Positions 1,290 through 43,150 of a DNA stretch of 44,228 bases are shown here, piece after piece; position 1 is the stretch's first letter; each line of letters starts with the position of its first letter. The notes below the pieces were generated by a model, which was not told the origin of the DNA, searched no databases, and saw only the letters and a list, made by a program, of their open reading frames with translations. Both the position numbers and the translations under genes were made by a program. The stretch is from Candidatus Woesearchaeota archaeon (GTDB taxonomy: Archaea; Nanobdellota; Nanobdellia; Woesearchaeales; WJIZ01): NCBI GenBank assembly GCA_018221205.1, contig JAAOYF010000010.1, positions 1-44,228 on the forward strand. Direction: 5' to 3'.

Positions 1290-1290
1290 G

Positions 1291-21301: not shown

Positions 21302-21763
21302 ATGGGAGTCTGTGATATGTGCGGTGCTGAAGACAGCTTATTCAAGACAGAGATAGAAGGCTCAACTCTTACTCTCTGCAGGAACTGCGCAAAATTCGGA
21401 AAAGTCATCATGCCGATAAAAGAGAAGCAGGATATCCCTAAGAAAAGGGAATTTCAGCGTGCCCCTTTGCTCTCAAAAGAGGAGATCTCCCAGGAGATCG
21501 TCGAGAATTACTCTGAGATCATAAAGAAAAAGCGAGAATCATTGGACCTCAAGCAGGAGGATTTCGCAAAAAAGATCAATGAGAAAGTAGCATTGATCCA
21601 TAAGATAGAGACAGGCCATTTCAAACCGAATCTTGTTCTTGCAAGAAAGATAGAGCGTTTCCTTAAGGTGAAATTAGTCGAGCAGGTGACAGGTTCTGCA
21701 TCGACTCCGACCGCAACCGAATCAGATTCATTCACTCTCGGAGACTTTATCCAGGAGAAGTAG
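21302..21763 (+). CDS. Archaeal multiprotein bridging factor aMBF1
   Basis: Zn ribbon CDMCG...C..C.KFG, HTH (LKQEDFAKKINEK...IETG) and C-terminal TLGDF. Confidence 0.9.
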   Translation: MGVCDMCGAEDSLFKTEIEGSTLTLCRNCAKFGKVIMPIKEKQDIPKKREFQRAPLLSKEEISQEIVENYSEIIKKKRESLDLKQEDFAKKINEKVALIHKIETGHFKPNLVLARKIERFLKVKLVEQVTGSASTPTATESDSFTLGDFIQEK

Positions 21764-24131: not shown

Positions 24132-24207
24132 CACGATTCAGATTCTATCAAAATATAAAAACCTTCTCAAAGTAAGTTTTATATATCTCCTCCTTGTCTC
24201 AAATAGA

Positions 24208-27080: not shown

Positions 27081-27111
27081 TTTTTTATAGCAACTTCTCT
27101 TTCCATAATCC

Positions 27112-27789: not shown

Positions 27790-27834
27790 GGCAATAGCAA
27801 CATATATAAAGCAAAATGCATTTTTCTGCCTAAT

Positions 27835-29373
27835 ATGAGTAAGAAGAAACAGCTGAAAGACTATCAGGAAATAAAGAAATCCCATGAATTGTCTAAAGAC
27901 AGGATTAAGTTCCAGCACTCTAAAGGCAAGATGACTGTTTGGGAAAGGCTTGATTTTCTTATGGACAAAGGCTCATTTATCGAGTATGATGAATTCGTCG
28001 AATCAAAAGAACCTTCTTTGAAAGATAAGAGACAGCCGAGAGACGGTGTCGTGACAGGCATAGGAAGGATAGATGGAAAAAAAGTCTGCATCTATGCGCA
28101 GGATTTCACTTTTATAGGAGGATCTATGGGCGAAGGCCATACAAGAAAAGTCGCCAAGATCATGAAACATGCCCTTAAGCTAGGGTGCCCAGTCATAGGT
28201 TTGCTGGATTCAGGCGGCGCTAGGATCCAGGAAGGTGTTTCTGGATTAGATGGAGGAGGAGAGATCTTTCGAACTAACACAAGAGCTTCTGGAGTCATCC
28301 CTCAGATTTCAGCTATCATGGGGCCTTGTGCAGGCATCGCAGTCTATTCTCCAGCTCTTACCGATTTCATCATGATGGTCAATAAGACCTCCAACATGTT
28401 CATCACCGGTCCGCAAGTCATCAAGACAGTGACAGGAGAGGAAATTTCCTTTGATAAATTAGGAGGAGCATCTGTCCATAATGAGCAATCAGGAGTAGCT
28501 CACTTCTACGCAGATAATGAGAAGCAATGTCTCCTGAAGATAAAGAAGCTGGCTTCTTATCTTCCTCAGAACAATCTAGAATCATCTCCAGTCTTGGATA
28601 CGAAGGACAACCCAGACAGGAAAGTACCTAAACTTCTCGAGATCATACCAGAAGATTCTATGCAGGTCTATGATGTCATAGGAGTCATAGATGAGATTGT
28701 CGATAAGAAAAGCTTCTATCAAGTACATGAGAAATATGCACAGAATGCAGTCGTAGGATTTGCACGATTGAACAATAATGTCGTCGGCATTGTCGCAAAC
28801 CAACCTCAGGTATTGGCAGGCTGTTTAGACATCAATTCATCTGATAAGATCGCAAGATTCGTACGTTTCTGTGACAGTTTCAATATTCCTTTGATCAATC
28901 TCGTCGACGTGACTGGATATCTGCCCGGAGTAGAGCAGGAACATGGCGGCATCATAAGACATGGTGCAAAGATCCTGTTTGCCTATTCCGAAGCCACGGT
29001 TCCTAAGATTTCTTTAGTCATGAGAAAAGCCTATGGTGGAGCATATATTGCCCTGGTTTCAAAAGACATGGGCTTCGACAAGGTCATTGCCTGGCCCACT
29101 GCTGAGATCGCAGTCATGGGCGCTGAAGGCGCTGTCAATATCCTCAATCGGAAAGAGCTTGCCAAGGAAAAGAATCCGGCAAAATTAAGAAAGAAGCTTA
29201 TCGAAGAATACGAGGAGAAATTCCTCAATCCATACATTGCTGCAAGGCAAGGCAAGGTAGATATGATCATCGACATGCAAGACACGAGAAAAACCCTCAT
29301 TGATGTTCTAGAGTCTTTGATTACAAAGAGAGAAAAGCTTCCTCCGAAGAAACACGCTAACATCCCTCTCTAA
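27835..29373 (+). CDS. Acyl-CoA carboxylase carboxyltransferase subunit (PccB/AccD-type)
   Basis: DGVVTG, QDFT..GGS, DSGGARIQEG, GPCAG, RFCD.FNIP, RKAYGGAY and KKH.NIPL. Confidence 0.95.
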   Translation: MSKKKQLKDYQEIKKSHELSKDRIKFQHSKGKMTVWERLDFLMDKGSFIEYDEFVESKEPSLKDKRQPRDGVVTGIGRIDGKKVCIYAQDFTFIGGSMGEGHTRKVAKIMKHALKLGCPVIGLLDSGGARIQEGVSGLDGGGEIFRTNTRASGVIPQISAIMGPCAGIAVYSPALTDFIMMVNKTSNMFITGPQVIKTVTGEEISFDKLGGASVHNEQSGVAHFYADNEKQCLLKIKKLASYLPQNNLESSPVLDTKDNPDRKVPKLLEIIPEDSMQVYDVIGVIDEIVDKKSFYQVHEKYAQNAVVGFARLNNNVVGIVANQPQVLAGCLDINSSDKIARFVRFCDSFNIPLINLVDVTGYLPGVEQEHGGIIRHGAKILFAYSEATVPKISLVMRKAYGGAYIALVSKDMGFDKVIAWPTAEIAVMGAEGAVNILNRKELAKEKNPAKLRKKLIEEYEEKFLNPYIAARQGKVDMIIDMQDTRKTLIDVLESLITKREKLPPKKHANIPL

Positions 29374-29374
29374 G

Positions 29375-29755
29375 ATGGAAGAAATAAAAGTCAATATCGA
29401 CGGCAAAGAGCAAGTTGTCAAGATAGAAGAAGAAGGAAATTCTCTGAAAGTGCATTTAGATGGTAAGGTCTACACCGTCGAGACAGGTCTGAAGAATGAA
29501 CAGAAAGATTTCGACCTAGAAGAATCCTCAGATTCCTCTGCAGGCGGCTCAATAAGGGCCCATCTGCCTGGAGTTATCTTCTCCATCGATATTAAGCAAG
29601 GAGATAAGGTAAAGAAAGGCCAGAAATTATGTTCTTTGGTTGCCATGAAGATGGAGAACCAGATCAAAGCACCGATAGCCGGAAAGATAAAGAAAATCAA
29701 TGTTAAAAAGAACGATAAAGTCAACAAAGGCGATATATTATTAATTATTGAATAA
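29375..29755 (+). CDS. Biotin carboxyl carrier protein
   Basis: AMKMEN biotinylation motif. Starts 1 nt after the CT stop. Confidence 0.93.
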   Translation: MEEIKVNIDGKEQVVKIEEEGNSLKVHLDGKVYTVETGLKNEQKDFDLEESSDSSAGGSIRAHLPGVIFSIDIKQGDKVKKGQKLCSLVAMKMENQIKAPIAGKIKKINVKKNDKVNKGDILLIIE

Positions 29756-29759
29756 GATA

Positions 29760-30047
29760 TTAATATCTAATCAAGCTCTGTCCACTTAGATTGACATAAT
29801 GACTTTTTAATTCTTTACCAGGTTCATTCCAAATAAGATCCAGTATTTGTTCATATGCATCCCATATTGTATCGGGTTTGCTTCCCTCACTTGCTGCACT
29901 ATACATGAGTGTTATTACAATCAAGGCAATGGGAGTGTACGCTGCTTTTCCAGCAATAATCGAAATATCTTTTGCTTTCGCGCTTACAACTCCGACCTGC
30001 TCCTCTAAAGTCAGCCCAGGTTTTGGATCTTCTGGCTTAAATAACAT
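29760..30047 (-). CDS. Hypothetical protein with one hydrophobic segment
   Basis: ATG-initiated ORF that fills the gap, with a TATA-like TTATAAA upstream. No homology recognised. Confidence 0.5.
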   Translation of the reverse strand: MLFKPEDPKPGLTLEEQVGVVSAKAKDISIIAGKAAYTPIALIVITLMYSAASEGSKPDTIWDAYEQILDLIWNEPGKELKSHYVNLSGQSLIRY

Positions 30048-30095
30048 GAATTATCTAAATCAGTTACAATTTATAAGAATTATTGTACTAGAGAG

Positions 30096-30326
30096 CTATT
30101 TCTTACCGTTTCCAGCACGGCCAAAAAGAATACCTGCGAGAACATTCAATGCCCATGCTTGAAGAACACTTATCTTATAGAGCGCTCCGAACACAAAGTT
30201 CCACAGCCACATGACTGGAAAAGCAAGGATCAGGCCGATGATTGCCGATATGAGGATGACCAGAAGCATAGTATAGGCTAGGTCTATTAATCTACCTAAT
30301 ATTGGAATGTTTGTCAATACCCCCAT
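30096..30326 (-). CDS. Small membrane protein
   Basis: 76-aa hydrophobic ORF (PVMWLWN...I...QAW.L) with TTTAAAAA upstream. Confidence 0.65.
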   Translation of the reverse strand: MGVLTNIPILGRLIDLAYTMLLVILISAIIGLILAFPVMWLWNFVFGALYKISVLQAWALNVLAGILFGRAGNGKK

Positions 30327-30381
30327 AGGAAAAACAGGTATTTATCAGTTTTTAAATCTTCCGGCTGTTTAAAGAACAGAA

Positions 30382-31050
30382 TTAGAGAAGAGTGACATCC
30401 CCTTCTTGCACAACTAAAGGCCCTTCTTCAGTCTGTACAACCAAATGGCCTTCATCATTGATATCAACAGCCTCTCCAGAGATAGTCTTATCCAATGATT
30501 TTACCGTAACGTTCTTGCCGAGCATGCCGCATTTCTCTTTGAACATTCGCAGTATATCAGAATGATCCAATGTCAGCAACTCTTCATATCTCTTAAGAAT
30601 TTTCCCTAATAACTCATTCAGGTCGCTTTCTTTCCCCGTCACTTCTTTCAGTGAAACAGCAATCTTTGTTATGTCAGAAAGCTCATTGTTCACATTCAGC
30701 CCAATGCCCACAACAACTTTCTCTGCTTCATTCCCAGAAAACTCAACCTCTGAAAGGATTCCGCAGATCTTCTTTCCCTCAACGAGAATATCATTAGGCC
30801 ATTTCGTTTCTCCCGTACCAATACTCTCGAGAACAGCCAATGCTCCGATAAAAGTATACTCAAACAATCTCTTCCCAGGTTCCAACACCAGGCTGAACCA
30901 CAATCCACCTTTCGAAGAGACCCATTTCCTTCCGAAACGTCCTCTGCCACGGATCTGTTCCTCAGCGACGATCACATTATTGGCAGGATACTTCTTAGCA
31001 ACCTCATTCGTAGAATCAACCTCTGGAAAAGTATGGATATGGAACATCAT
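30382..31050 (-). CDS. birA: Biotin--[acetyl-CoA carboxylase] ligase (no HTH domain)
   Basis: DSTN, Q..GRGRFGR.W.S, KWPND, KICGIL.E and GIGLNVN. Confidence 0.95.
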   Translation of the reverse strand: MMFHIHTFPEVDSTNEVAKKYPANNVIVAEEQIRGRGRFGRKWVSSKGGLWFSLVLEPGKRLFEYTFIGALAVLESIGTGETKWPNDILVEGKKICGILSEVEFSGNEAEKVVVGIGLNVNNELSDITKIAVSLKEVTGKESDLNELLGKILKRYEELLTLDHSDILRMFKEKCGMLGKNVTVKSLDKTISGEAVDINDEGHLVVQTEEGPLVVQEGDVTLL

Positions 31051-32915
31051 TCATGGAAGATGGCTTCTTGTCTGGCAGTATGCACCCACATGCTGTTCTT
31101 GTCATTGAAACGATTTTTTTTCTTCATATACTCTGTTACAGCAGTCGAGATGATGATTGCTTTTTCATCTTTTGACAATGTTTTCTTCTTCTTGAATTCC
31201 TTCCGGATCCTCTCCATGATCTGATTCTTCTCGATGAAAGAGGTGGTTATGGTCCCCTTCTGGAACGCATCAGTGTTCAAGACAACCTTATGGAATGGGA
31301 TGGTAGTATCCACTCCCTCGATGATGAATTCTTCTAATGCCCTTTTCATCCTCTCGATAGCTTCTGCTCGTGTCTTGCCGCCGCACATCAATTTAGCCAA
31401 AAGAGAATCATAATGAGGACTCACAACTTGCCCGGCATGCGAACCAGAACACACTCGGATGCCCGGACCTCCTGGAGGAAGATAATTCACGATCGTTCCT
31501 GTTTCAGGACAGAACCCATCATGGACACATTCCGTATTTATACGGCATTCAATGGCCCACCCATCCATCTTGATATCTTCCTGTTTGAAGGCAAGCTCAG
31601 CTCCTGCCGCTATTTTAATCTGCTCTTTCACCAGGTCGATGCCGGTTATCATCTCAGTTATACCATGCTCGACTTGGATTCGAGTATTCATCTCCATGAA
31701 ATAGAAAGTTCCTTGTTTATCGATGAGAAACTCGACCGTACCAGCTCCCTCATAGTTGATTGAAGAGACAACTTTCAACGCTGCCCTCCCCATCTTCTCT
31801 CTCATCTCAGGAGTCAGTGCAGGACTGGGAGCTTCCTCGATCAATTTTTGATGCCGTCTCTGGATAGAACAATCTCTCTCACCCAGATGGATGATATTTC
31901 CTTTTCTATCGGCCAAGATCTGGAACTCGATATGCTTAGGATCTTCAATATACTTCTCGATAAAGACATCGTTGTTGCCGAATGCACTATGAGCTTCTGT
32001 CTGGCACGATATGAAATTCTCCTCGAAGCTTTCTCTGTTATGGACAATCCTCATGCCTTTGCCTCCTCCCCCAGCAGCTGCTTTGATGATGATTGGAAAG
32101 CCGATATGGCTGGCAACTTGTTTCCCTTCCTCGACATCCAGGATAGAGTGTCCAGTTCCTTCAAGGACAGGAACCCCTGCCTGACTGATCAATTGTTTGG
32201 CATTGATCTTATCTCCCATCGCTTCAATAGCCTTAGAGGAAGGCCCGATGAATTTGATGCCGTTCTTTTTGCACAGCTTCGCAAATTCAGCGTTCTCAGC
32301 CAAAAAACCATAACCCGGATGCACTGCATCCACTTTACATTTCTTGGCTACTTTGATGATCTTGTTCATATTGAGATAATCAGATGCCTTATTCCCTAAC
32401 TTGATCGCCCGATTTGCAAATTTCACCCCTAGACTTTTCTCATCCTGCTTTGTATACACCTGGACAGATTCGATGCTCAGCTCACGACAAGCTCTGATGA
32501 CTCTCAAAGCGATCTCTCCCCTGTTCGCAACCAAGATTCTCTTGAACAGTCTTCCTTTCTTGATTTTGGTATAATCCTTCATCTCACCCAAAGCAAGACC
32601 CTTGGTCAGGATATCCAGAAAGCCCGCAGAGTCCTTTTCCCTGACAATCTGCTTCAGCTTATCCTCGCTCATATGGGGCAATTTACTTGCAATTTCAGAA
32701 GTGATGACCTCAGTCAATTTACTGAAGCCAGGATCTTCTTGCAGCTTCCTGCTCGTTTCAAAACTGATCAGATGGTTCTTCAGGAAGCTTTCAAGCTCAT
32801 GGAATACATCCGGCACTTTCTTTCTCAGGCCCCTGACACCTTTCTTAAGGCCCATATAACCCTTTTCTAAAGGCTTCAGTGCATTATTGATGAACTTTGC
32901 AGTCTTCTTTTTCAT
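31047..32915 (-). CDS. accC: Biotin carboxylase with N- and C-terminal extensions
   Basis: ANRGEIA, HPGYGFLAEN, KAAAGGGGKGMR, ERDCSIQRRHQK, EMNTRIQVEH and YDSLLAKL. Confidence 0.93.
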   Translation of the reverse strand: MKKKTAKFINNALKPLEKGYMGLKKGVRGLRKKVPDVFHELESFLKNHLISFETSRKLQEDPGFSKLTEVITSEIASKLPHMSEDKLKQIVREKDSAGFLDILTKGLALGEMKDYTKIKKGRLFKRILVANRGEIALRVIRACRELSIESVQVYTKQDEKSLGVKFANRAIKLGNKASDYLNMNKIIKVAKKCKVDAVHPGYGFLAENAEFAKLCKKNGIKFIGPSSKAIEAMGDKINAKQLISQAGVPVLEGTGHSILDVEEGKQVASHIGFPIIIKAAAGGGGKGMRIVHNRESFEENFISCQTEAHSAFGNNDVFIEKYIEDPKHIEFQILADRKGNIIHLGERDCSIQRRHQKLIEEAPSPALTPEMREKMGRAALKVVSSINYEGAGTVEFLIDKQGTFYFMEMNTRIQVEHGITEMITGIDLVKEQIKIAAGAELAFKQEDIKMDGWAIECRINTECVHDGFCPETGTIVNYLPPGGPGIRVCSGSHAGQVVSPHYDSLLAKLMCGGKTRAEAIERMKRALEEFIIEGVDTTIPFHKVVLNTDAFQKGTITTSFIEKNQIMERIRKEFKKKKTLSKDEKAIIISTAVTEYMKKKNRFNDKNSMWVHTARQEAIFHE

Positions 32916-33072
32916 ATTGACTAGAAGCTCTATTTTGCTTTTTAAACGTTTCCAAAAACAGTTTATAAAGTCTATATTTGCTCAAAAATAGCTCTTTCAG
33001 GCCTTAAATCACCCATATTTAGGCATCGAAAGCTATATAAATTAACATGAGTTATTCCGGAGAGTGATACCT
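32916..33072. promoter_or_regulatory. Divergent archaeal promoter region (accC-birA / fabZ operon)
   Basis: Minus strand TTTAAAAA (32946-32939) ~24 nt before the accC ATG. Plus strand CGAAAG-C-TATATAAA (BRE/TATA-like, TATA 33034-33041) and SD-like GGAGAGTGA before the fabZ ATG. Confidence 0.55.
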
Positions 33073-33555
33073 ATGGACGAAATAGAAAAACTCAAAAAAG
33101 ATGGACAATTGGATAAGGAAGCGATAATGAAGATCATTCCTTATAATGAGCACTTTCTCATGATTGATAAAGTGACCGAGCTTGAAAAGAAGAAGATCGT
33201 AGCAACAAAAGAGATAACTGGCGATGAAGACTACTTGAAAGGACATTTCGCCGGCTTCCCTATAATGCCCGGAGCGCTTATGGTGGAAGGCATGGGCCAA
33301 GCAGCAACATTATTGATGCGCTATAATGTCGAGAATCATCAGGAAAAAGAGATTCTCGCATACAAGATAAAAGATGCGAAATTTTCTAAGCCGACCTTTC
33401 CCCCTGCAGTCCTCACCTATGAGGCAGAGATGCAGGGCATGGATAACCGAGGTGCGTTGCTGACCAGTAAGGCCATGGTGGATGGGCAGAAAGTGGCTGA
33501 AGCAACCCTGATGCTGGCTATGGTCGATCGAAAGCAATTCCGCTCCCAATCATGA
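33073..33555 (+). CDS. fabZ: 3-hydroxyacyl-thioester dehydratase, FabZ-like hotdog
   Basis: IPY...FLMIDKV, GHF.GFPIMPGALMVEGMGQ (catalytic His and Glu retained) and KF.KP.FP. Confidence 0.88.
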   Translation: MDEIEKLKKDGQLDKEAIMKIIPYNEHFLMIDKVTELEKKKIVATKEITGDEDYLKGHFAGFPIMPGALMVEGMGQAATLLMRYNVENHQEKEILAYKIKDAKFSKPTFPPAVLTYEAEMQGMDNRGALLTSKAMVDGQKVAEATLMLAMVDRKQFRSQS

Positions 33556-34682
33556 TCATGCAGAGATACATCCATGGAGTAGGTATGACTAAGTTTGGGA
33601 TAGAGGATATCTCAGCTCCAGACCTCGCAAGAGAGGCCATCGTGCAGGCATTGAAAGGCTCCAGCATGTCTCCAAACGACATTGATGCGATTGTCCTTTC
33701 TAATGCCGATACCAAACTATCACCGGAACGGCAGCGCGATCTGACTCCTATGCTCGCTTCCATCTTGAAAAGAAAACTCCCTATAGTCAGGATTCCTGCA
33801 GTCTGTGGCGGCGGAGGAGCAGCGATGTGGTCTGCACTGAAGCTGAAGTACAATAATATCTTGGTTATCGCTGTCGAAAAGATAGCTTCTACCTCTACTC
33901 AGATGATAACAAAAGAGATCATGCATGCAAGCGATAATTTCCACGAGCAGGATGAGGGTTTGATCTTTCCTGCAGTCAATGCAATGGTCGCGCAGGCACA
34001 CATGCTAAAATTCGGCACCACCCATGACGATCTTGCGCTGATCTCCTACAAGAACCATCATCATGGCAGTCTCAATCCGAAAGCACGCTTCTACAGGAAG
34101 AATATCTCCCTGGACACCATTAAGAACGCGCCAATAATCTGTTCTCCTTTTACATTATATGACTGTTCCATCAGCGTCAACGGCGCAGCAGCAGCAATAA
34201 TCTCAAATGATAGATCAGACATCAAAGTGAAAGGCTCTTCATTGGCAGCAGATTATCTTGCTCCCTTTGAAAGAGATGAGCTCACGACCTGGACAGGGAC
34301 AGTGAAATCAGGGAAGGAAGCGTTCCAGCAGGCTGACTTAAATCCATCTGACATCAATGTCGCGGAATTGCATGACGCCTTTTCGATTGTTGAACTCCTT
34401 GCCTATGAAGATCTGGGTTTCTGCAAGAAAGGAGAAGGAAAAAACTTTATCCGGGACGGCCATCCGAATCTCGACGGAAAAGTGCCTATAAACACATCCG
34501 GCGGCCTTAAGGCGCGCGGTCATCCTATCTCACCGACAGGGATGGCACAGATAGTCGAGATAGCCGATCAGCTGCGAGGGAGATGCGGAGACAGGCAGGT
34601 GACGAATCCTAAATACGGTTTAGCGCATAATATTGGAGGTGCAGGAGGCACGACAACGTGCCATATCCTACAAAAATGGTAA
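33552..34682 (+). CDS. Archaeal/SCP2-type thiolase (paralog 1)
   Basis: GVGMTKFG, AVCGGGG (nucleophile Cys), ELHDAF, NTSGGLKARGHP and HNIGG. Confidence 0.9.
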   Translation: MIMQRYIHGVGMTKFGIEDISAPDLAREAIVQALKGSSMSPNDIDAIVLSNADTKLSPERQRDLTPMLASILKRKLPIVRIPAVCGGGGAAMWSALKLKYNNILVIAVEKIASTSTQMITKEIMHASDNFHEQDEGLIFPAVNAMVAQAHMLKFGTTHDDLALISYKNHHHGSLNPKARFYRKNISLDTIKNAPIICSPFTLYDCSISVNGAAAAIISNDRSDIKVKGSSLAADYLAPFERDELTTWTGTVKSGKEAFQQADLNPSDINVAELHDAFSIVELLAYEDLGFCKKGEGKNFIRDGHPNLDGKVPINTSGGLKARGHPISPTGMAQIVEIADQLRGRCGDRQVTNPKYGLAHNIGGAGGTTTCHILQKW

Positions 34683-35797
34683 AGACAATTCGTTGGAAAT
34701 GTGAAGCATGCGATCTGACATGGATCCACCCTATTGAGACATGCTTATACTGCGATAAGCAGGTGAAAAAGATCATCGGAACAAAGCATAAGGTCATCGG
34801 AATAACTGAAGTGCATATTCCTAATCCGTTGCACCCTATTGTGCCCTATAATGTCCTTCTTCTTCAGGACGAGCATGGCAACAAGATGCCTAAGAAGACC
34901 ATGAAGAAGTACGGGGTTGGAGATACGTATGAGGATAAGCCGAATGACTCTGAAAGAGCGATCTCCTCAATTAAAATAAAGTATGATTTCTATGAGGCTG
35001 TCAAGGAAGCATTGGAATTGATAGGAGATATCGATGCAAAAGGGAAAAAAGTGCTGCTCAAACCGAATCTCAGCATTCCAGCCTATCCTTATCTCGGCCT
35101 CTCGACAAATCCTAAAGTATTGGATGCATTGATACAGATTTTGAAGGAAAAAGGCGCTGCAAAGATAGCCATAGCAGAGCAGAGCTTCTTTGTTCCCACT
35201 GAAAAAGCAGTGGCAAAATCAGGACTGGCAGAGCTTATGAAAAAACATGATATAGAGTTCATTGACATAGCCGAGACTGAATTTGAAGAGAAGAAGCAAA
35301 GGGAATTTACGTTCAAGGTCTCAAAGATAGTGGATGATTTTGATCTGCTCATCAACGTTCCGGTCATCAAGACCGATATGGTGCTCGGAATGGACGGTGC
35401 GTTTGAGAACCTGACAAGGTTCCTGGCAAAAGAGACATTCGATGATCTTGCGAAAGATCCCCAGAAAGCTGCATTGGCATTGGCAGCTCTCCTGAACATC
35501 TTTCCAAAATTCCTCACTATAGGTGATGCTTCCATAGGCACACAAGGAAACGGTCCTGCACAGCACGGCGAACCAGGTTTTTACGGTTTGATCTTCGCAG
35601 CCCGCAACCCAGTCGTCCATGATACAGCTGTCCAGGAAGTGTTCTGTCTGAGAAAACTTCCTTATGTCCAGATGGCAGGAAAACTCGGAATGGGAGAATA
35701 CGATTATAACAAGATTGAATTCGTCGGCAATGAGCTGGATGCTCTCAGGAAAGACATCAAGCAGCCGATAGGATCAAAATTGCTCAAGAAAGGTTAA
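34676..35797 (+). CDS. DUF35-like Zn-ribbon/OB-fold fused to a DUF362-like domain
   Basis: N-term CEAC...P...CLYC plus V.GITEV.......PY.V.L (DUF35). C-term KKVLLKPN, TNP.V..A.I..L...GA, INVPVIKT and NPV..D (DUF362). Confidence 0.75.
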   Translation: MVKTIRWKCEACDLTWIHPIETCLYCDKQVKKIIGTKHKVIGITEVHIPNPLHPIVPYNVLLLQDEHGNKMPKKTMKKYGVGDTYEDKPNDSERAISSIKIKYDFYEAVKEALELIGDIDAKGKKVLLKPNLSIPAYPYLGLSTNPKVLDALIQILKEKGAAKIAIAEQSFFVPTEKAVAKSGLAELMKKHDIEFIDIAETEFEEKKQREFTFKVSKIVDDFDLLINVPVIKTDMVLGMDGAFENLTRFLAKETFDDLAKDPQKAALALAALLNIFPKFLTIGDASIGTQGNGPAQHGEPGFYGLIFAARNPVVHDTAVQEVFCLRKLPYVQMAGKLGMGEYDYNKIEFVGNELDALRKDIKQPIGSKLLKKG

Positions 35798-35798
35798 G

Positions 35799-36926
35799 AT
35801 GTATATCAAAGGAACAGGCATGACGAAATTCGGGACATCTGATAAGTTCTCACACCAGCTCGCTTATCAGGCTACCCAAGATGCCTTGAAAGACGCAGAT
35901 ACGAAATTCAAGGACATAGACGCAGTCATCTGCTCTTCTTTGGAGTTCTTCTCCTCGATTGAGAAGCAACGGCATTTTGCTTCGATGCTTTCATCGATGT
36001 TCAAGACCAACAAGCCGATCATCAGGGTGCCTGCTGCCTGCGCCGGAGGAGGAAATGCAGTGTGGTTCGCAAATCAGCTCGGCTATGACAAGGTCTTGGT
36101 GGTGGGTGCTGAAAAGCTCATGACTATGAAATCCTCGACCATAACAGATGAATTCATGATGGCAGCCGAGCCTTTTTACGAGCAGCCAGAAGGCCTTAAT
36201 TTTCCTGCCCAGAATGCAGCAGTCGCACAGGAATACATGTTCAAATATCCCGAGACAACCCATGATCATCTCGCTCTTATCGCACATAAGAACCACCATA
36301 ATGGTTTCCTCAATCCAAAGGCCAAGTTCTTCGGTAAGAAAGTATCTTTGGAGACGATAAAGAACGCTCCTATGGTATGCTCCCCCCTACGATTATACGA
36401 CTGTTCCATCAGCGTCGACGGAGCAGCAGCCCTTGTCCTGACAAAGGACAAGACAGATATTGAGATCGCAGGCTCAGACATGTGCAATGATTTCCTCCCT
36501 TCTTTTGAGAGGGCAGATAATACTTCTTGGGATGCGACGAAGATAGCCTCAAAGAATGCCTATGGGCAGGCAAAGCTCACTCCCGAAGACATCAATATTG
36601 CAGAGGTCCATGATGCCTTCACCAGTGTTGAATTGATCGCATATGAAGATTTAGGTTTTGCCAAGCCCGGAACAGCATATAAGAAGATCGAAGCAGGCTA
36701 TTTCAATCTCGACGGTAAGCTTCCCGTAAATACATCAGGTGGCCTGAAAGCAAAAGGTCATCCTATTTCAGCGACAGGGGTTGCCCAGATGGTTGAGATA
36801 ACGCAGCAGCTGAGGAATCAGGCAGGAGATAGGCAGGTCACTGGTGCAAAGATCGGACTGTGCCAGAACATCGGAGGAGCAGGAGCCATTATTGCTACTC
36901 ATATTCTGAAAAAGATTGGAGGCTAA
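35799..36926 (+). CDS. Archaeal/SCP2-type thiolase (paralog 2)
   Basis: GTGMTKFG, AACAGGG, DGAAA, EVHDAF, NTSGGLKAKGHP and QNIGG. Confidence 0.9.
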   Translation: MYIKGTGMTKFGTSDKFSHQLAYQATQDALKDADTKFKDIDAVICSSLEFFSSIEKQRHFASMLSSMFKTNKPIIRVPAACAGGGNAVWFANQLGYDKVLVVGAEKLMTMKSSTITDEFMMAAEPFYEQPEGLNFPAQNAAVAQEYMFKYPETTHDHLALIAHKNHHNGFLNPKAKFFGKKVSLETIKNAPMVCSPLRLYDCSISVDGAAALVLTKDKTDIEIAGSDMCNDFLPSFERADNTSWDATKIASKNAYGQAKLTPEDINIAEVHDAFTSVELIAYEDLGFAKPGTAYKKIEAGYFNLDGKLPVNTSGGLKAKGHPISATGVAQMVEITQQLRNQAGDRQVTGAKIGLCQNIGGAGAIIATHILKKIGG

Positions 36927-36970
36927 AATGAAAATTCAAAAATTAAAAATTTTTGAAATTCATTTTTTTA

Positions 36971-36976
36971 GGAGGT
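36971..36976 (+). promoter_or_regulatory. Shine-Dalgarno GGAGGT for fabG
   Basis: GGAGGT-AAAAAA-ATG. Confidence 0.7.
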
Positions 36977-36982
36977 AAAAAA

Positions 36983-37717
36983 ATGAAAGGAAAAAACGCA
37001 CTTATTACAGGTTCAGCTCGAGGTTTGGGAAAGGAGATGGCCCTTACATTAGCAAAAGAAGGAGTAAATATCATCATCAATGATATCCCTCAGATGAAGG
37101 AAGAAGCAGAGAAGACCGTCGAGGAATTAACAAAGCTTGGAGTGAAATCAGAATTCCTCCCAGGAGATGTCTCAGATTTCGATTCCTGCAAGAAACTGGC
37201 AGAAGAGATAAAGAAGAAGTTCGAGAAGCTCGACATCCTCATCAATAATGCAGGAATAACAAAGGATAGAACGCTAAAGAAGATGACTAAAGAAGAATGG
37301 TATCCAGTTATCAGCGTCAATCTCAATTCCCTCTATAATGTGACTCATAATGTCATGGAATTGATCCCAGAAGGAGGAAGGATAGTCAATATCTCATCGA
37401 TAGCTGGTACGGCAGGCAATTTCGGCCAGACCAATTACTCAGCGACAAAAGCAGGCGTCATCGGCTTCACCAAATCATTGGCAAAAGAATTAGGAAAGAA
37501 TAAGATAACCGTCAACGCCGTCGCTCCAGGTTTCATCAAGTCAGCAATGACCGATAAGATCCCCTTGCAGATGCTGGCAAATATTCTTGAGTTAATCCCC
37601 ATGAAGACGACCGGAGAGCCGGAAGATGTCGCCAATGCAGTGAAATTCCTCTGCTCAGACGACGCTAAGTACATAACAGGAATAACGTTAGGAGTAGATG
37701 GAGGATTGAGTTTTTAA
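36983..37717 (+). CDS. fabG: 3-oxoacyl-thioester reductase (FabG/PhaB-like SDR)
   Basis: TGSARGLG, NNAGITKD, NISS, GQTNYSATKAG and VAPGFI. Confidence 0.88.
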   Translation: MKGKNALITGSARGLGKEMALTLAKEGVNIIINDIPQMKEEAEKTVEELTKLGVKSEFLPGDVSDFDSCKKLAEEIKKKFEKLDILINNAGITKDRTLKKMTKEEWYPVISVNLNSLYNVTHNVMELIPEGGRIVNISSIAGTAGNFGQTNYSATKAGVIGFTKSLAKELGKNKITVNAVAPGFIKSAMTDKIPLQMLANILELIPMKTTGEPEDVANAVKFLCSDDAKYITGITLGVDGGLSF

Positions 37718-37758
37718 TTTTTCATTACTATTATATAGCCTAAAATATCTCTCAACCT

Positions 37759-38445
37759 ATGAAAGGCACATTCATCATCGTGGATGGCATCGACGGCTCC
37801 GGGAAAGGAGAGGTCATGCGCGTTTTTCAGGATCAGCATGAACATGTCTTTGACCTTGATAAATATACACAAGATCATAGAAGATTCCCGAAGATTGAAG
37901 AGATAAACCAAGAAGTCATTCTTTCTGCCGAGCCAACTCATGTCTATGCCGGCGCAGCCTTAAGAGAAGAGATTTTAGCAGGAGAAAGAAAATATTCTGC
38001 ATTAACCACTGCCCATGGGTTTGCGTTAGACAGAGAGATTCTCTATAACCGTTTCATCATACCTGCGTTGAAAGCAGGAAAGACCATCATCCAGGAAAGA
38101 GGGATTGCCTCATCATTGGTCTATCAGCCAGTGCAGATGGAAAAACTCTCTCTGAGGGATATCATGAACATCTCCGGCAACAGATTGGCAATTAAGAACG
38201 CCCCAAATTTCCTCATCATCGTCAAGGCAGATGCAGACGTCATCTCCAAGCGAATTAAAGGAAGAAAAGGCATCTTCGACAGCCTCTTTTTCCAGAGAAA
38301 GATTGAAGAACGGTTTGAATCAGAATGGCTCAAGCAGGTCTTTGAAAGATTCGGCTCGAAAGTCATCTATATCGACGGAAACCTTCCTTTAGAAGAAGTA
38401 AAAGAAAATGCATTGAAAATCTATAATGATCATTTGAAGAGGTAA
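37759..38445 (+). CDS. tmk: Thymidylate kinase
   Basis: FI.VDGIDGSGKG, EPT, F..DR, QER...SSLVYQ and P. Confidence 0.82.
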   Translation: MKGTFIIVDGIDGSGKGEVMRVFQDQHEHVFDLDKYTQDHRRFPKIEEINQEVILSAEPTHVYAGAALREEILAGERKYSALTTAHGFALDREILYNRFIIPALKAGKTIIQERGIASSLVYQPVQMEKLSLRDIMNISGNRLAIKNAPNFLIIVKADADVISKRIKGRKGIFDSLFFQRKIEERFESEWLKQVFERFGSKVIYIDGNLPLEEVKENALKIYNDHLKR

Positions 38446-38693
38446 TGCTTTCTCACTTTTTTGTTGATCTTCCAGGTGCATTTCATTCCTTTAGGAAAAA
38501 CCACATAATCGCCTTTCTCAAAATGAGATACTTCTCCTTCTTCATTCGTCACATCGACATCTCCCTCTAGAAGCAGGCAATGCTCTTCCTGGCTGTATTC
38601 CCAAGGGAATTCACTTTCCTCTTTCTCCCAGATCCCCCAATCTTTGACTTTCTCCCTATCTTCTTCAGTCGCCTTATGTATGGTCGGTTTCAT
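38430..38693 (-). CDS. Cupin, DUF861/EutQ-like
   Basis: WGIWEKE.SEFPW.Y...E.C..LEG.V, GD.V.FPKG..C.W and KHY.F. Start at MKPT. Confidence 0.88.
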   Translation of the reverse strand: MKPTIHKATEEDREKVKDWGIWEKEESEFPWEYSQEEHCLLLEGDVDVTNEEGEVSHFEKGDYVVFPKGMKCTWKINKKVRKHYLFK

Positions 38694-38775
38694 GAGGGTA
38701 TTGAATCGAGAAGCGTATATATTACTTTCTCTGGAAATAGTGACATTTATATAGTTTTCAAGAGCAATCTTACCA

Positions 38776-39417
38776 ATGGTACACGCAATCGCACGCCACA
38801 CAATCATCTTTTTTACGAGTCTCTATATAAAGAAGATTGAAGGGATAAAGAATCTTCCTGAAGGCCCGTTTATCTTCGCCGCAAATCACGCATCCTATAT
38901 AGATGATTTTGTCATTCCCCTCTTGAGCTTTTCCTATCTCAAAAAGAAAGTAGTCATATTTGTCAACTCATTGTATCATAAATATCCTTTCCTGAGGAGC
39001 TACCTCCTCCACTATAATTGCATCCCCCTTGCTGTGAGAAAGTATGTGAAGGATGCAAGGAAGAGGAAAGCGACCAACAAAAAAGCATTCGCATTCGCGA
39101 AAAAAGGCTTGAAAGAAGGAAAACTTATCGGCATTTTTCCAGAAGGGACAAGGAGCAAGGACGGGAAACTGCAAAAAGCTAAGATAGGCGTCGCTCAGCT
39201 AGCGTTAGAAGCAGGTGTCCCAGTAGTGCCGATCGGGATAAAAGGCTCTTTTGATATCCTGCCTCCAGGAAGATTTTTCCCTCGTTTCAAGAGATGCACG
39301 GTAAAAATCGGCAAACCTCTCTATTTCAAAGAAAAGAAGAAAGATTATAAAACACTCGAAAGAGTGACTACTAAAATCATGAAAGAGATTGCAAAACTCA
39401 TCGATCAGAGCTACTAA
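38776..39417 (+). CDS. plsC: Lysophospholipid/G3P acyltransferase, PlsC family (paralog 1)
   Basis: NHASYID (HxxxxD), FPEGTRS and VPVVPIGI. Confidence 0.9.
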   Translation: MVHAIARHTIIFFTSLYIKKIEGIKNLPEGPFIFAANHASYIDDFVIPLLSFSYLKKKVVIFVNSLYHKYPFLRSYLLHYNCIPLAVRKYVKDARKRKATNKKAFAFAKKGLKEGKLIGIFPEGTRSKDGKLQKAKIGVAQLALEAGVPVVPIGIKGSFDILPPGRFFPRFKRCTVKIGKPLYFKEKKKDYKTLERVTTKIMKEIAKLIDQSY

Positions 39418-39418
39418 A

Positions 39419-40051
39419 ATGGTCTATCCGATAGCACGCATCATCATTTCCGCATTGTTGAGCCCATGGATGGGAAAATGTACGGGTATAGAGAATGTTC
39501 CCAAGAAAAAAGGAGCGCTTTTGGCAGCAAATCACGCTTCTTATCTGGATCATTTTGTCATCGGCACAAAAGTCGTTCCTCACACAAACAAAGTTCTTCA
39601 TTTCCTCGCTAAGCAAGAACATTTTGATTCCCCACACCAATGGTTATGGCATAAATATCTGAGAGCAATACCTCTAGATAGGAAAGCAGGTGGAAAAACA
39701 GGATTGTCAAAAGCAGTCAAACATCTGAAGAAGGGAGACCTCATCATGATCTACCCTGAAGGTACGAGAACATTAGATGGTAAGATGAACAAAGCCAAGA
39801 CAGGTGTGGCAAGATTGGCATTGGCAGCGCATGTTCCGGTCATCCCCATGGGAATAACCAACACTTTTAGGATTCTTCCGAAGAAAAAGCGCTTTCCTCG
39901 AAGAGGAAAAGCAGATTTAAATATAGGGAAGCCGCTCTATTTTACACAGTACTATGGCAAGGGAAGTGACAAGAAAGTGCTGAGAAAGGTGACTAACATC
40001 ATAATGAAAGAGATTGCAAGATTATCAAAGCAAGAATATCCACACAGATGA
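39419..40051 (+). CDS. plsC: Lysophospholipid/G3P acyltransferase, PlsC family (paralog 2)
   Basis: NHASYLD, FLAK.E.F, IPLDR, YPEGTRT and VPVIP. Confidence 0.92.
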   Translation: MVYPIARIIISALLSPWMGKCTGIENVPKKKGALLAANHASYLDHFVIGTKVVPHTNKVLHFLAKQEHFDSPHQWLWHKYLRAIPLDRKAGGKTGLSKAVKHLKKGDLIMIYPEGTRTLDGKMNKAKTGVARLALAAHVPVIPMGITNTFRILPKKKRFPRRGKADLNIGKPLYFTQYYGKGSDKKVLRKVTNIIMKEIARLSKQEYPHR

Positions 40052-41016
40052 TATCAGTAATAGGCGCAGGAACATGGGGCACAACGTTGGCGAATGTGCT
40101 TGCAGAGAATAATCCAGATGAGCAGATAATGCTCTGGGCCCGCGAGAAGGAAGTAGTCGATTTCATAAACAATGAAAACAAGAACATACTTTTCCTTCCC
40201 GAGATAAGGCTTGCAAAGAATATCAAAGCAACAGCCAATATAGAAGAAGCAGTTGCAGATATAATCATAACAGCGATTCCTGCACAATTTTTAAGAGAGA
40301 ACATCAAGAAGATAAGCGATAAGATAAAAACAGCAACTATAGTGAACGTGGCAAAAGGACTTGAGATCCATACCTTCAAGCGTATGTCAGAGGTTCTGAA
40401 AGAAGAGCTTCCAGACGCGAAGATTGCGGTCTTATCAGGTCCTAATCATGCCGAGGAAGTCGCAAGGAAGATCCCGACAGCGACAGTCATCGCTTCAAAA
40501 GATGCTGATTTAGAACATCTAAAGAGACTCTTCGAGGCAGACCATTTCAAGGTCTATTCTCATGATGATGTTATTGGAGTAGAGATCTGTGCTGCAGTGA
40601 AGAATATAACAGCAATCGCAACCGGAGTGATAGCAGCATTAGGATTGGGAGATAACGCAAACGGCTCCATCATAACGCTTGGCCTGAGAGAGATGGTCGA
40701 ATTAGGAAGAAATTTTGGAGCGAATGAAAAGACCTGCTACGGCCTGGCAGGAGTAGGGGATCTGGTCGCTACATGCACATCAACACACTCCCGAAACCGA
40801 AAAGCAGGTGCCTTAGTTGCCAAAGGCATGGATTTTGACGCGATAAAGAAAGAGATGCACGGTATGGTCGCTGAAGGCATATGGACCTGCAAAGCTGTGC
40901 ATGAATATGCAGAAAAAAATAACCTTAATCTGCCTCTAACGAGCCAAATCTACAAAGTCCTCTATGAAAAAAAAGAATTAAGACATGCCATAGAGGATTT
41001 GAAAAAGTTAATTTAG
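40048..41016 (+). CDS. gpsA: NAD(P)H-dependent sn-glycerol-3-phosphate dehydrogenase
   Basis: GAGTWGT, AKGLE, LSGPNHA.EV, KNI.AI..G, GLAGVGDL..TC.S..SRN and AEG. ATGA overlap with plsC. Confidence 0.95.
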   Translation: MISVIGAGTWGTTLANVLAENNPDEQIMLWAREKEVVDFINNENKNILFLPEIRLAKNIKATANIEEAVADIIITAIPAQFLRENIKKISDKIKTATIVNVAKGLEIHTFKRMSEVLKEELPDAKIAVLSGPNHAEEVARKIPTATVIASKDADLEHLKRLFEADHFKVYSHDDVIGVEICAAVKNITAIATGVIAALGLGDNANGSIITLGLREMVELGRNFGANEKTCYGLAGVGDLVATCTSTHSRNRKAGALVAKGMDFDAIKKEMHGMVAEGIWTCKAVHEYAEKNNLNLPLTSQIYKVLYEKKELRHAIEDLKKLI

Positions 41017-41019
41017 ACG

Positions 41020-41895
41020 TTATATTATCAAAATCACTCCTATAACAAGCATTGATACAGCAATGAATTTCTGAATCAGAACAGGTTTGGAGAATTTCTC
41101 CTTTATGATCTTAGGAAAAAATAAGCTTAATAATAACGTTATGAGAAAAACAAATAATAAATCAAGCCTTCCAATTGCTGCAACCAACGCAGCAGGACCA
41201 GCAGTGAGAGCAAAGGTAAAAAAGACAAAGCCCACGACATTCAAAGTTGTGCCTAGCAGCAAATGCTTAACCCCCCTTTTAGCTTTCTGGAGAAGATGAG
41301 GATGATGAAAAGCAAATAACACGACACCAACTATTCCCTGCCCAACACTAATCCAGAATATAATCGACCATATGTTGCCCTGAAAGGTCACGAACTTGAT
41401 TATGACGGTACGAAGAGCAAAGAGGATTGCAGTAAACAGGGCAAAATAAAACGCAGTGTTGAAGTGTACCTTGAATGAAGCTTTTTCCATAGAGATGAGA
41501 AAGGCACTCATTGCGATTAACACTATCCCCACATATATCGCTGTAGTATAAGATTCACCCAGGAAAAGGAGAGCAAACAGAAGGACAAATAATGATTCTG
41601 TAGCCAGCACCGGAATAACTCGTGAGACTTCTCCTCTTTTAATGGCGAAAAAATAAATCAGAATAGCCAAACGGTAAATAATGCCAGCGAGAACTGCAGT
41701 ACCGATGACAACTAAAGGTAAAAAAATGCCCCCTAATATAACAGAAATAATCCCTAAGAGGAGGAAAGTATAGATGCCAGTAACAGCAGGAGCCAAGACA
41801 GGATCCTTGAGTTCCTTTCCGATAATAAACTTATCCTGGACATCAACAACTGCAAATATAAATGCAGCAGCCATAGCCAAAAGTACCCAAACCAT
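41020..41895 (-). CDS. EamA/DMT family transporter
   Basis: Two 5-TM repeats with G.VSRV.P and LFLGE. Confidence 0.85.
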   Translation of the reverse strand: MVWVLLAMAAAFIFAVVDVQDKFIIGKELKDPVLAPAVTGIYTFLLLGIISVILGGIFLPLVVIGTAVLAGIIYRLAILIYFFAIKRGEVSRVIPVLATESLFVLLFALLFLGESYTTAIYVGIVLIAMSAFLISMEKASFKVHFNTAFYFALFTAILFALRTVIIKFVTFQGNIWSIIFWISVGQGIVGVVLFAFHHPHLLQKAKRGVKHLLLGTTLNVVGFVFFTFALTAGPAALVAAIGRLDLLFVFLITLLLSLFFPKIIKEKFSKPVLIQKFIAVSMLVIGVILII

Positions 41896-42021
41896 TATTC
41901 CCTTTTTTGATGAGAGGGGTTAATAAATGTTGCGGAGCATTGCCTTCGTGCAGCTAGGATTACTTAGAAATATTTTATTAATGCAACTTACAAAACACCA
42001 ATGAGGTATATATTCCACCCG

Positions 42022-42264
42022 CTATCTTTGATGAGCATTATTCTTTACAAAGAAATTCGGATTATTTTTAGCTGCTTCTGTATTCCAGTACTTCTCCCTG
42101 TTAGAATCTTGCGTAACTCCCAAACCTTCTCTGTACATTTCTCCAACCAAATATTGAGCTTCAAGATGGCCTGCTCGTGCAGCTTTTTCTAAGTGAGTAA
42201 ATGCTTCTAGGTAATCTCTGCCTTCATAAAAGAGTAAACCTAATCTCCATTGGGCTTTGTAACC
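42022..42264 (-). pseudogene. Sel1-like repeat protein remnant (not in ORF track)
   Basis: Manual translation gives GYKAQWRLGLLFYEGRDYLEAFTHLEKAARAGHLEAQYLVGEMYREGLGVTQDSNREKYWNTEAAK...*. An in-frame TAG lies immediately upstream and there is no start codon before the first repeat. Confidence 0.7.
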
Positions 42265-42393
42265 CTATCTTCCAATGGTACACGTTCCTCACCCGAGCCA
42301 AGAATTAACGCCACAAGCACCCAAGATGCCGTCTCATACCTATGAGTATACGTATAATTTTATAAATTTTTCAGTGTAATTCATGAAAGAAAA

Positions 42394-42993
42394 TTATTCC
42401 TCCGTAAAATCGTCGACACTCTCTTTAAGATCTTCTTTCGGCTTCAGTTTTCCTATCTTGCGCAGATATTCTCGTGCAAGCAGCCAAAAGAACAATCCGA
42501 GGCTTTTCTTTCCCTTGTTGTTGCAAGGTATAACGAGATCGATGAAATTGCTCTGGTTGTTGGTATCACAAAGGGCAATGACAGGGATGCCGATCTTCAT
42601 CGCATCCTGGATAGCGTTTCGGTCAGGCCAGGAATCAGTGACAAAGACGATCTTTGCCTCGACATATCTCTTCAATTCAGGATTGGTCAATACCCCAGGC
42701 AGATATCTGCCTGCAAAGGTCTTGCAGCCAGTTACCTTTCCGAACATCTTGACAGGCTTCCACGAATTCTCTCTTCTGGATGAGATCAAGATGTCTTCAG
42801 GCTCGAATTGAGCAAGCAGATTTGCTGCAAGCTTGATACGTTCATCGATTTTCTGTAGATTGAGAACAGAAAGTCCATCAGGACGTGTTTTGTAAATAAA
42901 ATCAGCCATGTATTTTGTCTTGAATTTAGTACCGATATGGATACCACTCTTCAAATATTCTTCTTGTGCGATTAAAAATCCTTCTTCTGCCAT
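42394..42993 (-). CDS. rps2: 30S ribosomal protein uS2 (archaeal type)
   Basis: YL.SGIHIGTK, R.DGL.VL, GRY.PG.LTNP, D..AI.DA, CDTN and IPCNNKG..SL. Confidence 0.96.
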   Translation of the reverse strand: MAEEGFLIAQEEYLKSGIHIGTKFKTKYMADFIYKTRPDGLSVLNLQKIDERIKLAANLLAQFEPEDILISSRRENSWKPVKMFGKVTGCKTFAGRYLPGVLTNPELKRYVEAKIVFVTDSWPDRNAIQDAMKIGIPVIALCDTNNQSNFIDLVIPCNNKGKKSLGLFFWLLAREYLRKIGKLKPKEDLKESVDDFTEE

Positions 42994-43150
42994 TTTTTTC
43001 CTCTCCCCGCATTTTTATGACCTCAGCAGGGCCTTGATAACGCATCAAGTATCAACGTTATCGTCGGTATTAAAGAAAAGAGATATTCACCCCTTTTTAA
43101 AGGTATTTGTTATGGAAAAGTTATTAAAGTCCAACGCTGAAGATGGACCT

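Follow-up and report, generated by a model that had tools for sequence, protein, structure and literature searches.

What condenses the acyl chains in an archaeon whose genes for a FabZ-type dehydratase and a FabG-type reductase enclose, where a ketoacyl synthase gene would be expected, two thiolase genes and a gene for a DUF35-domain protein? The question is raised by a 44,228-nt contig of a Candidatus Woesearchaeota archaeon (JAAOYF010000010.1 of assembly GCA_018221205.1), the whole of which is referred to here as the window. The answer we favor, at a probability of about 0.58, is that the thiolases belong to a fatty acid synthase free of acyl carrier protein (ACP), which would work on CoA thioesters, be driven by malonyl-CoA and feed glycerol-3-phosphate (G3P) ester lipids. 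If this explanation is taken together with the alternative in which acetyl-CoA is the extender, an anabolic pathway that feeds lipids is, judged from sequence, very probable. We regard the cluster as a real, conserved variant of thiolase/DUF35 fatty acid synthesis, not described before, that is linked with both a carboxylase and the acylation of G3P. A preliminary description of the locus had proposed an ACP-independent, CoA-based synthase with thiolases in place of the ketoacyl synthase, and both genome content and co-occurrence now support this proposal well.

The five core genes, from FabZ to FabG, are intact and lie at the centre of a 13-kb block. To their left are genes for a carboxyltransferase, a biotin carboxyl carrier protein, a 76-aa hydrophobic open reading frame (ORF), BirA and a divergent biotin carboxylase, and to their right a Tmk-like gene, two PlsC paralogues and GpsA:

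27835..29373, + strand: acyl-CoA carboxylase carboxyltransferase subunit, fused alpha/beta type (PF01039, E 1e-188)
29375..29755, + strand: biotin carboxyl carrier protein, BCCP (PF00364)
30096..30326, − strand: 76-aa hydrophobic protein of no known family, among the carboxylase genes (kept in 25 of 36 loci with enough flank)
30382..31050, − strand: biotin protein ligase BirA (TIGR00121, over cut-off)
31047..32915, − strand: biotin carboxylase with an N-terminal extension of ~120 aa, divergent from FabZ (TIGR00514 accC, over cut-off)
33073..33555, + strand: FabZ-type hot-dog 3-hydroxyacyl dehydratase (PF07977; TIGR01750 at 110.7 bits, below the cut-off of 155)
33552..34682, + strand: thiolase 1, SCP2/archaeal type with Cys, HDAF and GHP (profile match, motifs, tree)
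34676..35797, + strand: DUF35 (zinc ribbon + OB) fused to DUF362 (LarA N-terminal fold) (structure model)
35799..36926, + strand: thiolase 2, with Cys81, His271 of HDAF and His321 of GHP (motifs, structure model)
36983..37717, + strand: FabG-type 3-ketoacyl reductase (TIGR01830 at 297.4 bits against a cut-off of 297.75; PDB matches to FabG/PhaB)
38776..39417, + strand: PlsC-family acyltransferase 1, HxxxxD intact (PF01553)
39389..40051, + strand: PlsC-family acyltransferase 2, HxxxxD intact (PF01553)
40048..41016, + strand: GpsA, NAD(P)H-dependent sn-glycerol-3-phosphate dehydrogenase (NF000942, over cut-off)

The core had been taken for a tightly coupled operon. FabZ and thiolase 1 do overlap by ATGA, thiolase 1 and the fusion gene by 7 nt (ATG at 34676), and a single nucleotide separates the fusion gene from thiolase 2, but FabG (ATG 36983) follows thiolase 2 only after 56 nt, a junction that is not tight, and the block is also larger than claimed. 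The DUF362 fusion, the adjoining carboxylase, the downstream PlsC-PlsC-GpsA and the FabI/Bcd reductase had all been omitted. The FabZ-type protein aligns at the catalytic His/Glu motif, and all 21 of its 21 PDB matches are FabZ-type enzymes.

Gene content and co-occurrence

All four steps of a fatty acid cycle are encoded in the genome that holds the window (G000; 1.28 Mb, 94.8% complete and not closed, the window being its contig C33), whereas no ACP, ketoacyl-ACP synthase (KAS; FabB/FabF), FabH or HMG-CoA synthase (HMGS) was found there, FabD (PF00698) not having been searched for; this combination supports the proposal of an ACP-free synthase. The lack of HMGS, noted before for the locus, thus extends to the whole genome, in which neither HMG-CoA reductase (HMGR) nor other mevalonate enzymes were found, and the complete ACP/KAS system elsewhere that had been named as refuting the proposal was not found in G000 either. 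The enoyl reductase is represented by FabI (G000:C29:5223-6080), and FabZ, FabG and FabI all score under their NCBIfam equivalog cut-offs. A candidate FabK was rejected, its PF03060 match being dihydroorotate dehydrogenase, and a PF00107 search of G000 for a medium-chain dehydrogenase/reductase (MDR) enoyl-CoA reductase gave one sub-cut-off match, on a short-chain dehydrogenase/reductase (SDR). Bcd, Etf, pyruvate:ferredoxin oxidoreductase (POR) and thioesterase were not found in G000 by tblastn, nor was Bcd by the genome search. Acetyl-CoA could be supplied by an acetyl-CoA synthetase and two 2-oxoacid dehydrogenase clusters (window 16-2439 and G000:C1:31653-35497), one of which may be a source of branched-chain primers.

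The association of the thiolase pair with the carboxylase is the main ground for malonyl-CoA. Thiolase 2 was matched in 47 of 301 genomes sampled across the order, in which, as in the panel described below, kin genomes are not independent. The pair marks 27 cluster genomes (26 with two copies, G144 only with contig-end fragments), and the carboxyltransferase was present in 27/27 of these and in 0/274 of the others. Because the carboxyltransferase occurs in the same 27/301 genomes as the pair, and no methylmalonyl-CoA mutase or other malonyl or methylmalonyl sink (no KAS) was found in G000, malonyl-CoA is the extender that we favor. GpsA is likewise present in all 27 cluster genomes (79/301 overall). 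Without three unpublished genomes (G132, G208 and G210), 24 cluster genomes remain, and these were placed in a hand-picked panel of 49 with three single-thiolase f86 genomes, G141, two HDCF/DUF35-DUF362 genomes, 11 mevalonate-type and eight GpsA-only genomes. KAS was found in none of the 24, and the HMGS/FabH family in three; HMGR occurs in two, both times fused behind a PP-binding domain. FabI is found in nine and Bcd in 13, never both, and neither in G111 (56% complete) and G216 (96%). This mutual exclusion has a naive hypergeometric P of 4e-5, inflated by kin, and the two reductases swap within families f1 and f119.

At least 78 loci came from a scan across GTDB. From 71 unique DUF35-DUF362 loci, nine were dropped as single-thiolase, HDCF-type or unrelated, leaving 62 for synteny counts whose denominators comprise only loci with enough flank. 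FabZ is present in 48 of 50, FabG in 33 of 34, biotin carboxylase in 39 of 46, PlsC or GpsA in 26 of 34 and at least two thiolase ORFs in 31 of 31, a count that includes fragments and HMGS-linked copies. In Bcd-type loci POR subunits are often inserted, and Bcd-EtfB-EtfA runs directly into PlsC-PlsC-GpsA. Among the at least 78 loci the full fusion is found in records titled Woesearchaeota, Nanoarchaeota/Nanoarchaeia, or 'uncultured Methanosarcinales', as well as in one Iainarchaeum record and a single short contig titled Nitrospinota; in the tree, genes from the 'Methanosarcinales' records fall among those of Woesearchaeota, and therefore those titles are probably wrong.

The lipid genes point to G3P esters. 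No full-length geranylgeranylglyceryl phosphate (GGGP) synthase was found in any cluster genome, G000 included (a full-length PcrB match occurs in 3/301 genomes, none a cluster genome), and G000 has the methylerythritol phosphate (MEP) pathway genes DXR and IspE and no glycerol-1-phosphate dehydrogenase (G1PDH), the only candidate, an Fe-ADH_2 match, reading by sequence and context as AroB in a shikimate operon. Several cluster genomes also gave short PcrB matches (~45-110 positions, E 1e-4 to 1e-6), which are presumably unrelated TIM barrels. PlsY was found neither in G000 nor in any of the 24 cluster genomes, which is in keeping with acylation of both sn-1 and sn-2 by the PlsC pair. PssA, a CarS-family enzyme (147.4 bits against a cut-off of 148) and a double PgsA are clustered in G000. 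LipA, which scores over cut-off and adjoins an LplA/LipM-type gene, indicates that octanoyl groups are required, and an archaeal Lgt (prolipoprotein diacylglyceryl transferase) gene lies at window 2406-3191 (−) and, in G200 (L100:4641-5390; G numbers denote relatives' genomes and L numbers loci), inside the operon directly before PlsC-PlsC-GpsA; both speak for the favored explanation.

Several observations concern the surroundings. The Tmk-like gene (37759-38445, +) stands within the operon in G000 only, and a second, distant Tmk-like gene is on contig C2. The 76-aa protein is possibly a membrane anchor; a homologue gave no Pfam match and Atlas matches were all <0.9. A hidden ACP was rejected, as the protein is hydrophobic and no PP-binding domain was found in it. 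Elsewhere the window encodes a phospholipid-methyltransferase-like protein (PEMT; 7959-8393, +), an MBOAT/DUF1574 pair followed by two GT2 glycosyltransferases (21728-24134, −) and, by profile matches, RadB, a uS2 and a Hef-like helicase-nuclease. One read run, probably DNA and possibly from the source sample, covered 30/30 bins of window 27000-43000 with no joints, which has no bearing on expression. Variant clusters (L034, L045-L047 and several of L136-L170) repeatedly include a SAM methyltransferase (in some cases joined to a further FabG), a family III CoA-transferase, E3 and BioY; the methyltransferase and the CoA-transferase were not found in G000. A second module of HMGS and a thiolase-like protein with degenerate catalytic motifs lies in or beside the cluster at L068, L069, L100, L125, L148, L163, L168, L171 and L177, usually with a DUF35 and in three loci with four conserved genes of unknown function, in a layout like PhlABC/MucABC. 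G144 (L099:795-3902) has a 1035-aa AMP-binding/PP-binding/HMG-CoA reductase fusion near GpsA/PlsC, similar to a PP-binding-HMGR frame in G104 (L119).

The two thiolases and their fused partner

The two thiolases share 54% of their protein and 61% of their DNA sequence, and both retain the nucleophile Cys, HDAF and GHP, as had been described. Their DNA is not near-identical, as had also been claimed; the 18-nt string common to both (34161 and 36399) is found nowhere else in the genome and encodes a conserved motif, and over 40 pairs the longest stretch shared by the copies has a median of 28 nt. Nor do the residues proposed to tell the copies apart (NGAAA/HNIGG against DGAAA/QNIGG) hold as family-wide markers. 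The residue before NIGG varies freely (thiolase 1/2: QQ 10, HH 8, HQ 8, QH 8, other 6), and the N/D difference is kept in 26/40 pairs (ND 22, DN 4), the others being N/N (13) or S/D (1).

A division of labor is nevertheless supported, on other grounds. Identical tracts of at least 15 codons between the paralogues, up to 750 nt long, occur in 10/40 two-copy loci and are read as gene conversion. All of them lie within residues 123-372 and never in 1-122, and in six loci a tract starts at 123-135; uniform placement would avoid residues 1-122 with a chance of 4e-5, a naive figure in that the N-terminus is already more divergent, four loci are close kin and tracts were merged across one indel. Across residues 1-122 orthologues are 0.59-0.72 identical and paralogues 0.40-0.52, whereas across 123-372 the ranges are 0.65-0.81 and 0.59-0.79, respectively. 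The copies of L148 retain the two N-terminal types despite an overall identity of 85%. Across the clade to which the window belongs (22 loci), fixed differences include positions 49/50, 60, 80, 105 and 119, with Asp-Thr 49/50, Val80 and Ile119 in thiolase 1 and Glu-aromatic 49/50, Ala80 and Phe119 in thiolase 2 (thiolase 2 numbering). In the model of thiolase 2, residues 1-122 hold the nucleophile loop, strands in 2-105 and a helix at 112-121, elements that make up the dimer interface and the acyl pocket of thiolases. That conversion spares this region supports two distinct jobs for the thiolases, and the differences between the two N-terminal domains suggest that selection has likely maintained them for a heterodimer or for a split between short and long chains.

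To examine the wider relationships, a tree was built with IQ-TREE from 61 of the 122 unique thiolases, drawn only from loci gathered here and with no outgroups beyond them. The 44 HDAF sequences form one clade (100/99), whose sister is a pair of HDCF thiolases that also neighbor DUF35-DUF362, and the two together are separated at 100/100 from 10 in-order mevalonate-operon thiolases. Among all thiolases flanking the fusion, 91 are HDAF, two HDCF and eight unscored or divergent; 11 HMGS-adjacent ones are HDCF. The Cys of HDCF is the proposed acid/base of SCP2 thiolases, and Cys-His-His is the catalytic set of the decarboxylating KAS I/II. The HDAF clade is without the second Cys, so that a Cys-His-His set remains, which is no more than suggestive of decarboxylating condensation. 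The HDCF motif of SCP2 thiolases is named in PMC12329534. Single HDCF thiolases with DUF35-DUF362 stand among radical SAM, epimerase and aminotransferase genes in L049 (G239) and L050 (G264), and perhaps represent the origin of the fatty-acid clade. In L047, L068, L146, L147, L150, L158, L163 and L165 thiolase ORFs are broken up or lack internal segments, with no N gaps present, probably through assembly errors at repeats common to both copies.

The 373-aa product of the middle gene had been described as a DUF35 scaffold. A DUF35 fold is indeed present, but the protein is not a plain DUF35, being fused to DUF362, the only one of the two domains that Pfam detects. In its AlphaFold model (pLDDT 86), residues ~1-100 match the DUF35 chains of 6esq (6esq_E), 7pxp, 6ok1 (6ok1_D) and 5m3k at Z 6-7, and the four-Cys zinc motif of this domain, which spans roughly residues 1-90, is present in 32/34 homologues. 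Residues 95-360 match the N-terminal domain of LarA racemase (Z 16-18, rmsd 2.6-3.1 Å over ~210 residues), only about half of LarA aligning to the DUF362 domain. The available text of one DUF362 paper places the family in the same Pfam clan as LarA, and none of the DUF362 papers listed tied it to fatty acid synthesis. Named homologues of the fusion are nearly all labelled Woesearchaeota or Nanoarchaeota. In a single case, G103 (L040:7478-9709), the fusion runs in one frame into FabG (743 aa), which hints at tethering of FabG; the fusion protein is a likely scaffold.

A proposed cycle and its rivals

From gene content, synteny, motifs, phylogeny, co-occurrence and conversion tracts we infer the following cycle, in which each reaction, its direction, the malonyl extender, the chain length and the complex are predictions. 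Acetyl-CoA would come from pyruvate dehydrogenase or acetyl-CoA synthetase (from POR in many relatives), and malonyl-CoA from the adjoining biotin-dependent carboxylase. The Cys-His-His thiolases, held by the DUF35 domain, would take up the acyl chain at Cys for decarboxylative condensation with malonyl-CoA, replacing FabH/FabF. The product would be reduced by FabG, probably tethered through the DUF362 domain, dehydrated by FabZ, and the enoyl-CoA reduced by FabI in G000 or Bcd-EtfAB in other genomes. G3P from GpsA would then be acylated by the two PlsC paralogues, and head groups added by CarS/PgsA/PssA-family enzymes. The thiolases, which differ in their N-terminal domains, would likely act as a heterodimer or share out short and long chains. 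A bolder version, in which a thiolase heterodimer is a malonyl-CoA-dependent decarboxylating condensing enzyme without ACP, an independently invented ketosynthase (perhaps with labor split as between a ketosynthase and a chain-length factor), and the whole membrane of this Woesearchaeota lineage consists of G3P fatty acyl esters, so that the lipid divide has been crossed completely, is put forward only tentatively.

Several points weigh against a malonyl-CoA-driven, CoA-based synthase. The usual substrates of FabZ, FabG and FabI are ACP thioesters, propionyl-CoA might be the better substrate of the carboxylase, and the POR and Etf genes of Bcd-type loci also fit fermentation. The co-occurrence of carboxyltransferase and thiolases reflects in part linkage and common descent, G216 has neither enoyl reductase, and a PP-binding domain occurs in 5/24 cluster genomes, none within the cluster, that of G015 being ~9 kb away. 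HDAF is also found in the Pyrococcus thiolase 7yvy and in the thiolytic BbsB, so that the motif alone is no proof of decarboxylation, and the thiolase 2 model is far nearer to thiolases (SCP2-type Z 48-55; best Foldseek match Methanothermococcus 6esq, TM 0.94) than to KAS (Z 27). In the three f86 genomes (64-76% complete) FabZ, FabG and Bcd accompany a lone HDAF thiolase, and neither carboxyltransferase nor GpsA gave a match; hence the carboxylase tracks the duplication and not the HDAF motif. The one Sulfolobus thiolase reported as tested in the accessible part of bioRxiv 10.1101/2024.07.05.601840, Saci_1114, showed no malonyl use.

These points bear differently on the alternatives. A lipid-feeding pathway could instead condense acetyl-CoA without decarboxylation, driven by channelling as in Sulfolobus, with the carboxylase in a side role (methylmalonyl extenders or primers). 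According to the same part of that preprint the Sulfolobus ketothiolase (KT)/DUF35 uses acetyl-CoA, and the plain thiolase fold of the thiolase 2 model and the HDAF thiolases without a carboxylase match in f86, and in Pyrococcus, agree with this; however, the carboxylase pattern of 27/27 against 0/274 and the linkage of biotin carboxylase to FabZ (39/46) would be left without a sink, no KAS or mutase having been found, and we consider such a pathway unlikely. A short-chain or energy pathway, with membrane lipids scavenged, would either yield butyrate/caproate by reverse beta-oxidation with Bcd-Etf electron bifurcation or provide octanoyl groups for nothing but lipoate. It would suit the POR, Bcd, EtfAB and thioesterase genes within many loci, the LipA of G000, and the Sulfolobus cascade, which in the portion of the preprint cited gave hexanoyl-CoA in vitro, the cells having mainly C8-C10 acids. 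It is distinctly improbable given that G000 has FabI in place of the enzymes that tblastn failed to find there, that an ATP-consuming carboxylase would be senseless in fermentation, and that the operon continues into PlsC-PlsC-GpsA (26/34 loci).

We give still less weight to a system for elongating or remodelling fatty acids scavenged from the host, with no chain initiation of its own. A symbiotic lifestyle is generally proposed for DPANN in the portions of the literature available, and the CoA-transferase III and methyltransferase genes of some loci would fit, but the search of G000 for AMP-binding enzymes turned up only one, which by its sequence is an acetyl-CoA synthetase, so that no long-chain activating enzyme is evident. 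Finally, the thiolases might serve HMGS, or FabZ and FabG might belong to an ACP/KAS system on missing contigs of a genome that is not closed. HMGS does follow thiolase 2 or FabG in 7/62 loci and is present in 3/24 cluster genomes, but those HMGS genes bring a divergent thiolase of their own, in most cases together with a DUF35, 21/24 cluster genomes are without HMGS/FabH and 24/24 without KAS, and with the tree separating the clade from mevalonate thiolases at 100/100 this explanation is largely refuted.

Known systems and significance

The closest published system is the Sulfolobus acidocaldarius synthase, given in the part of bioRxiv 10.1101/2024.07.05.601840 available as KT Saci_1121/DUF35 Saci_1120, SDR Saci_1104, MaoC Saci_1085 and MDR Saci_1115. 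The Woesearchaeota cluster shares with it the lack of ACP, a thiolase next to DUF35, a FabG-like reductase and a hot-dog dehydratase. It differs in having a FabZ-type enzyme and FabI in place of MaoC and MDR (MaoC not having been searched for genome-wide) and in the adjoining carboxylase, which points to malonyl-CoA. Woesearchaeota and DPANN go unmentioned in the main text of that preprint, although its Figs S32-S36 could include such genomes.

With bacterial FAS II and the Kennedy pathway G000 has in common the carboxylase, FabG, FabZ, FabI, GpsA, PlsC, PgsA, PssA and Lgt. Unlike bacteria, it has thiolases in the condensing slot, no ACP, FabB/F, FabH or PlsY having been found, an archaeal single-chain carboxyltransferase, and a CarS-family enzyme in place of CdsA. 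The archaeal mevalonate complex also places a zinc ribbon-OB DUF35 beside a thiolase, as in the Methanothermococcus thiolase/DUF35/HMGS complex (6esq), but the thiolase there is HDCF and in G000 HDAF, HMGS and HMGR were not found in G000, and its thiolases do not group with those of mevalonate operons. Thiolase folds with DUF35-type partners are likewise found in BbsAB, Ltp2/Sal and PhlABC/MucABC, all in unrelated gene contexts. The benzoylsuccinyl-CoA thiolase BbsAB has a DUF35-type zinc partner and its BbsB shares Cys-HDAF-GHP, but the window thiolases score only 185 and 145 against the BbsB model (cut-off 750); Ltp2/Sal aldolases use a catalytic Tyr in YDHF/YDCY (PMC12329534), where both window thiolases have HDAF and Cys. 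Clostridial reverse beta-oxidation (Thl-Hbd-Crt-Bcd/Etf) differs in its Bcd-EtfAB, not found in G000, the window cluster having FabG/FabZ.

Parts of this gene set have been reported. The sections available of Castelle 2021 (PMC8204110) and Zhang 2024 (PMC10936187) report, for Woesearchaeota, the MEP pathway, G3PDH, FabG/FabI/FabZ and genes of 'bacterial fatty acid synthesis', and identify no condensing step, lack of ACP/KAS, carboxylase link or thiolase pair, though Supplementary Table 4 of PMC8204110 may list the genes of this cluster. In their accessible portions, sporadic GpsA/PlsC in DPANN are described by Coleman 2019 (PMC6431249), atoB is mentioned by Liu 2018 (PMC5994134), and DPANN are said to be unable to make lipid building blocks by Boukhchtaber 2025 (PMC11868695). 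No published description of this cluster was found in a literature search that left most subscription journals outside.

The cluster predicts a malonyl-CoA-using thiolase, which the Sulfolobus study, in the part available, sought without success. The set of about a dozen genes is compact and open to expression and assay, and since residues 1-122 mark the difference between the two thiolases, they offer well-defined swap experiments. We know of no archaeon whose membrane is made of fatty acyl ester lipids that it has synthesized itself, and a switch from an archaeal host to a membrane of fatty acyl esters must have occurred in eukaryotes.

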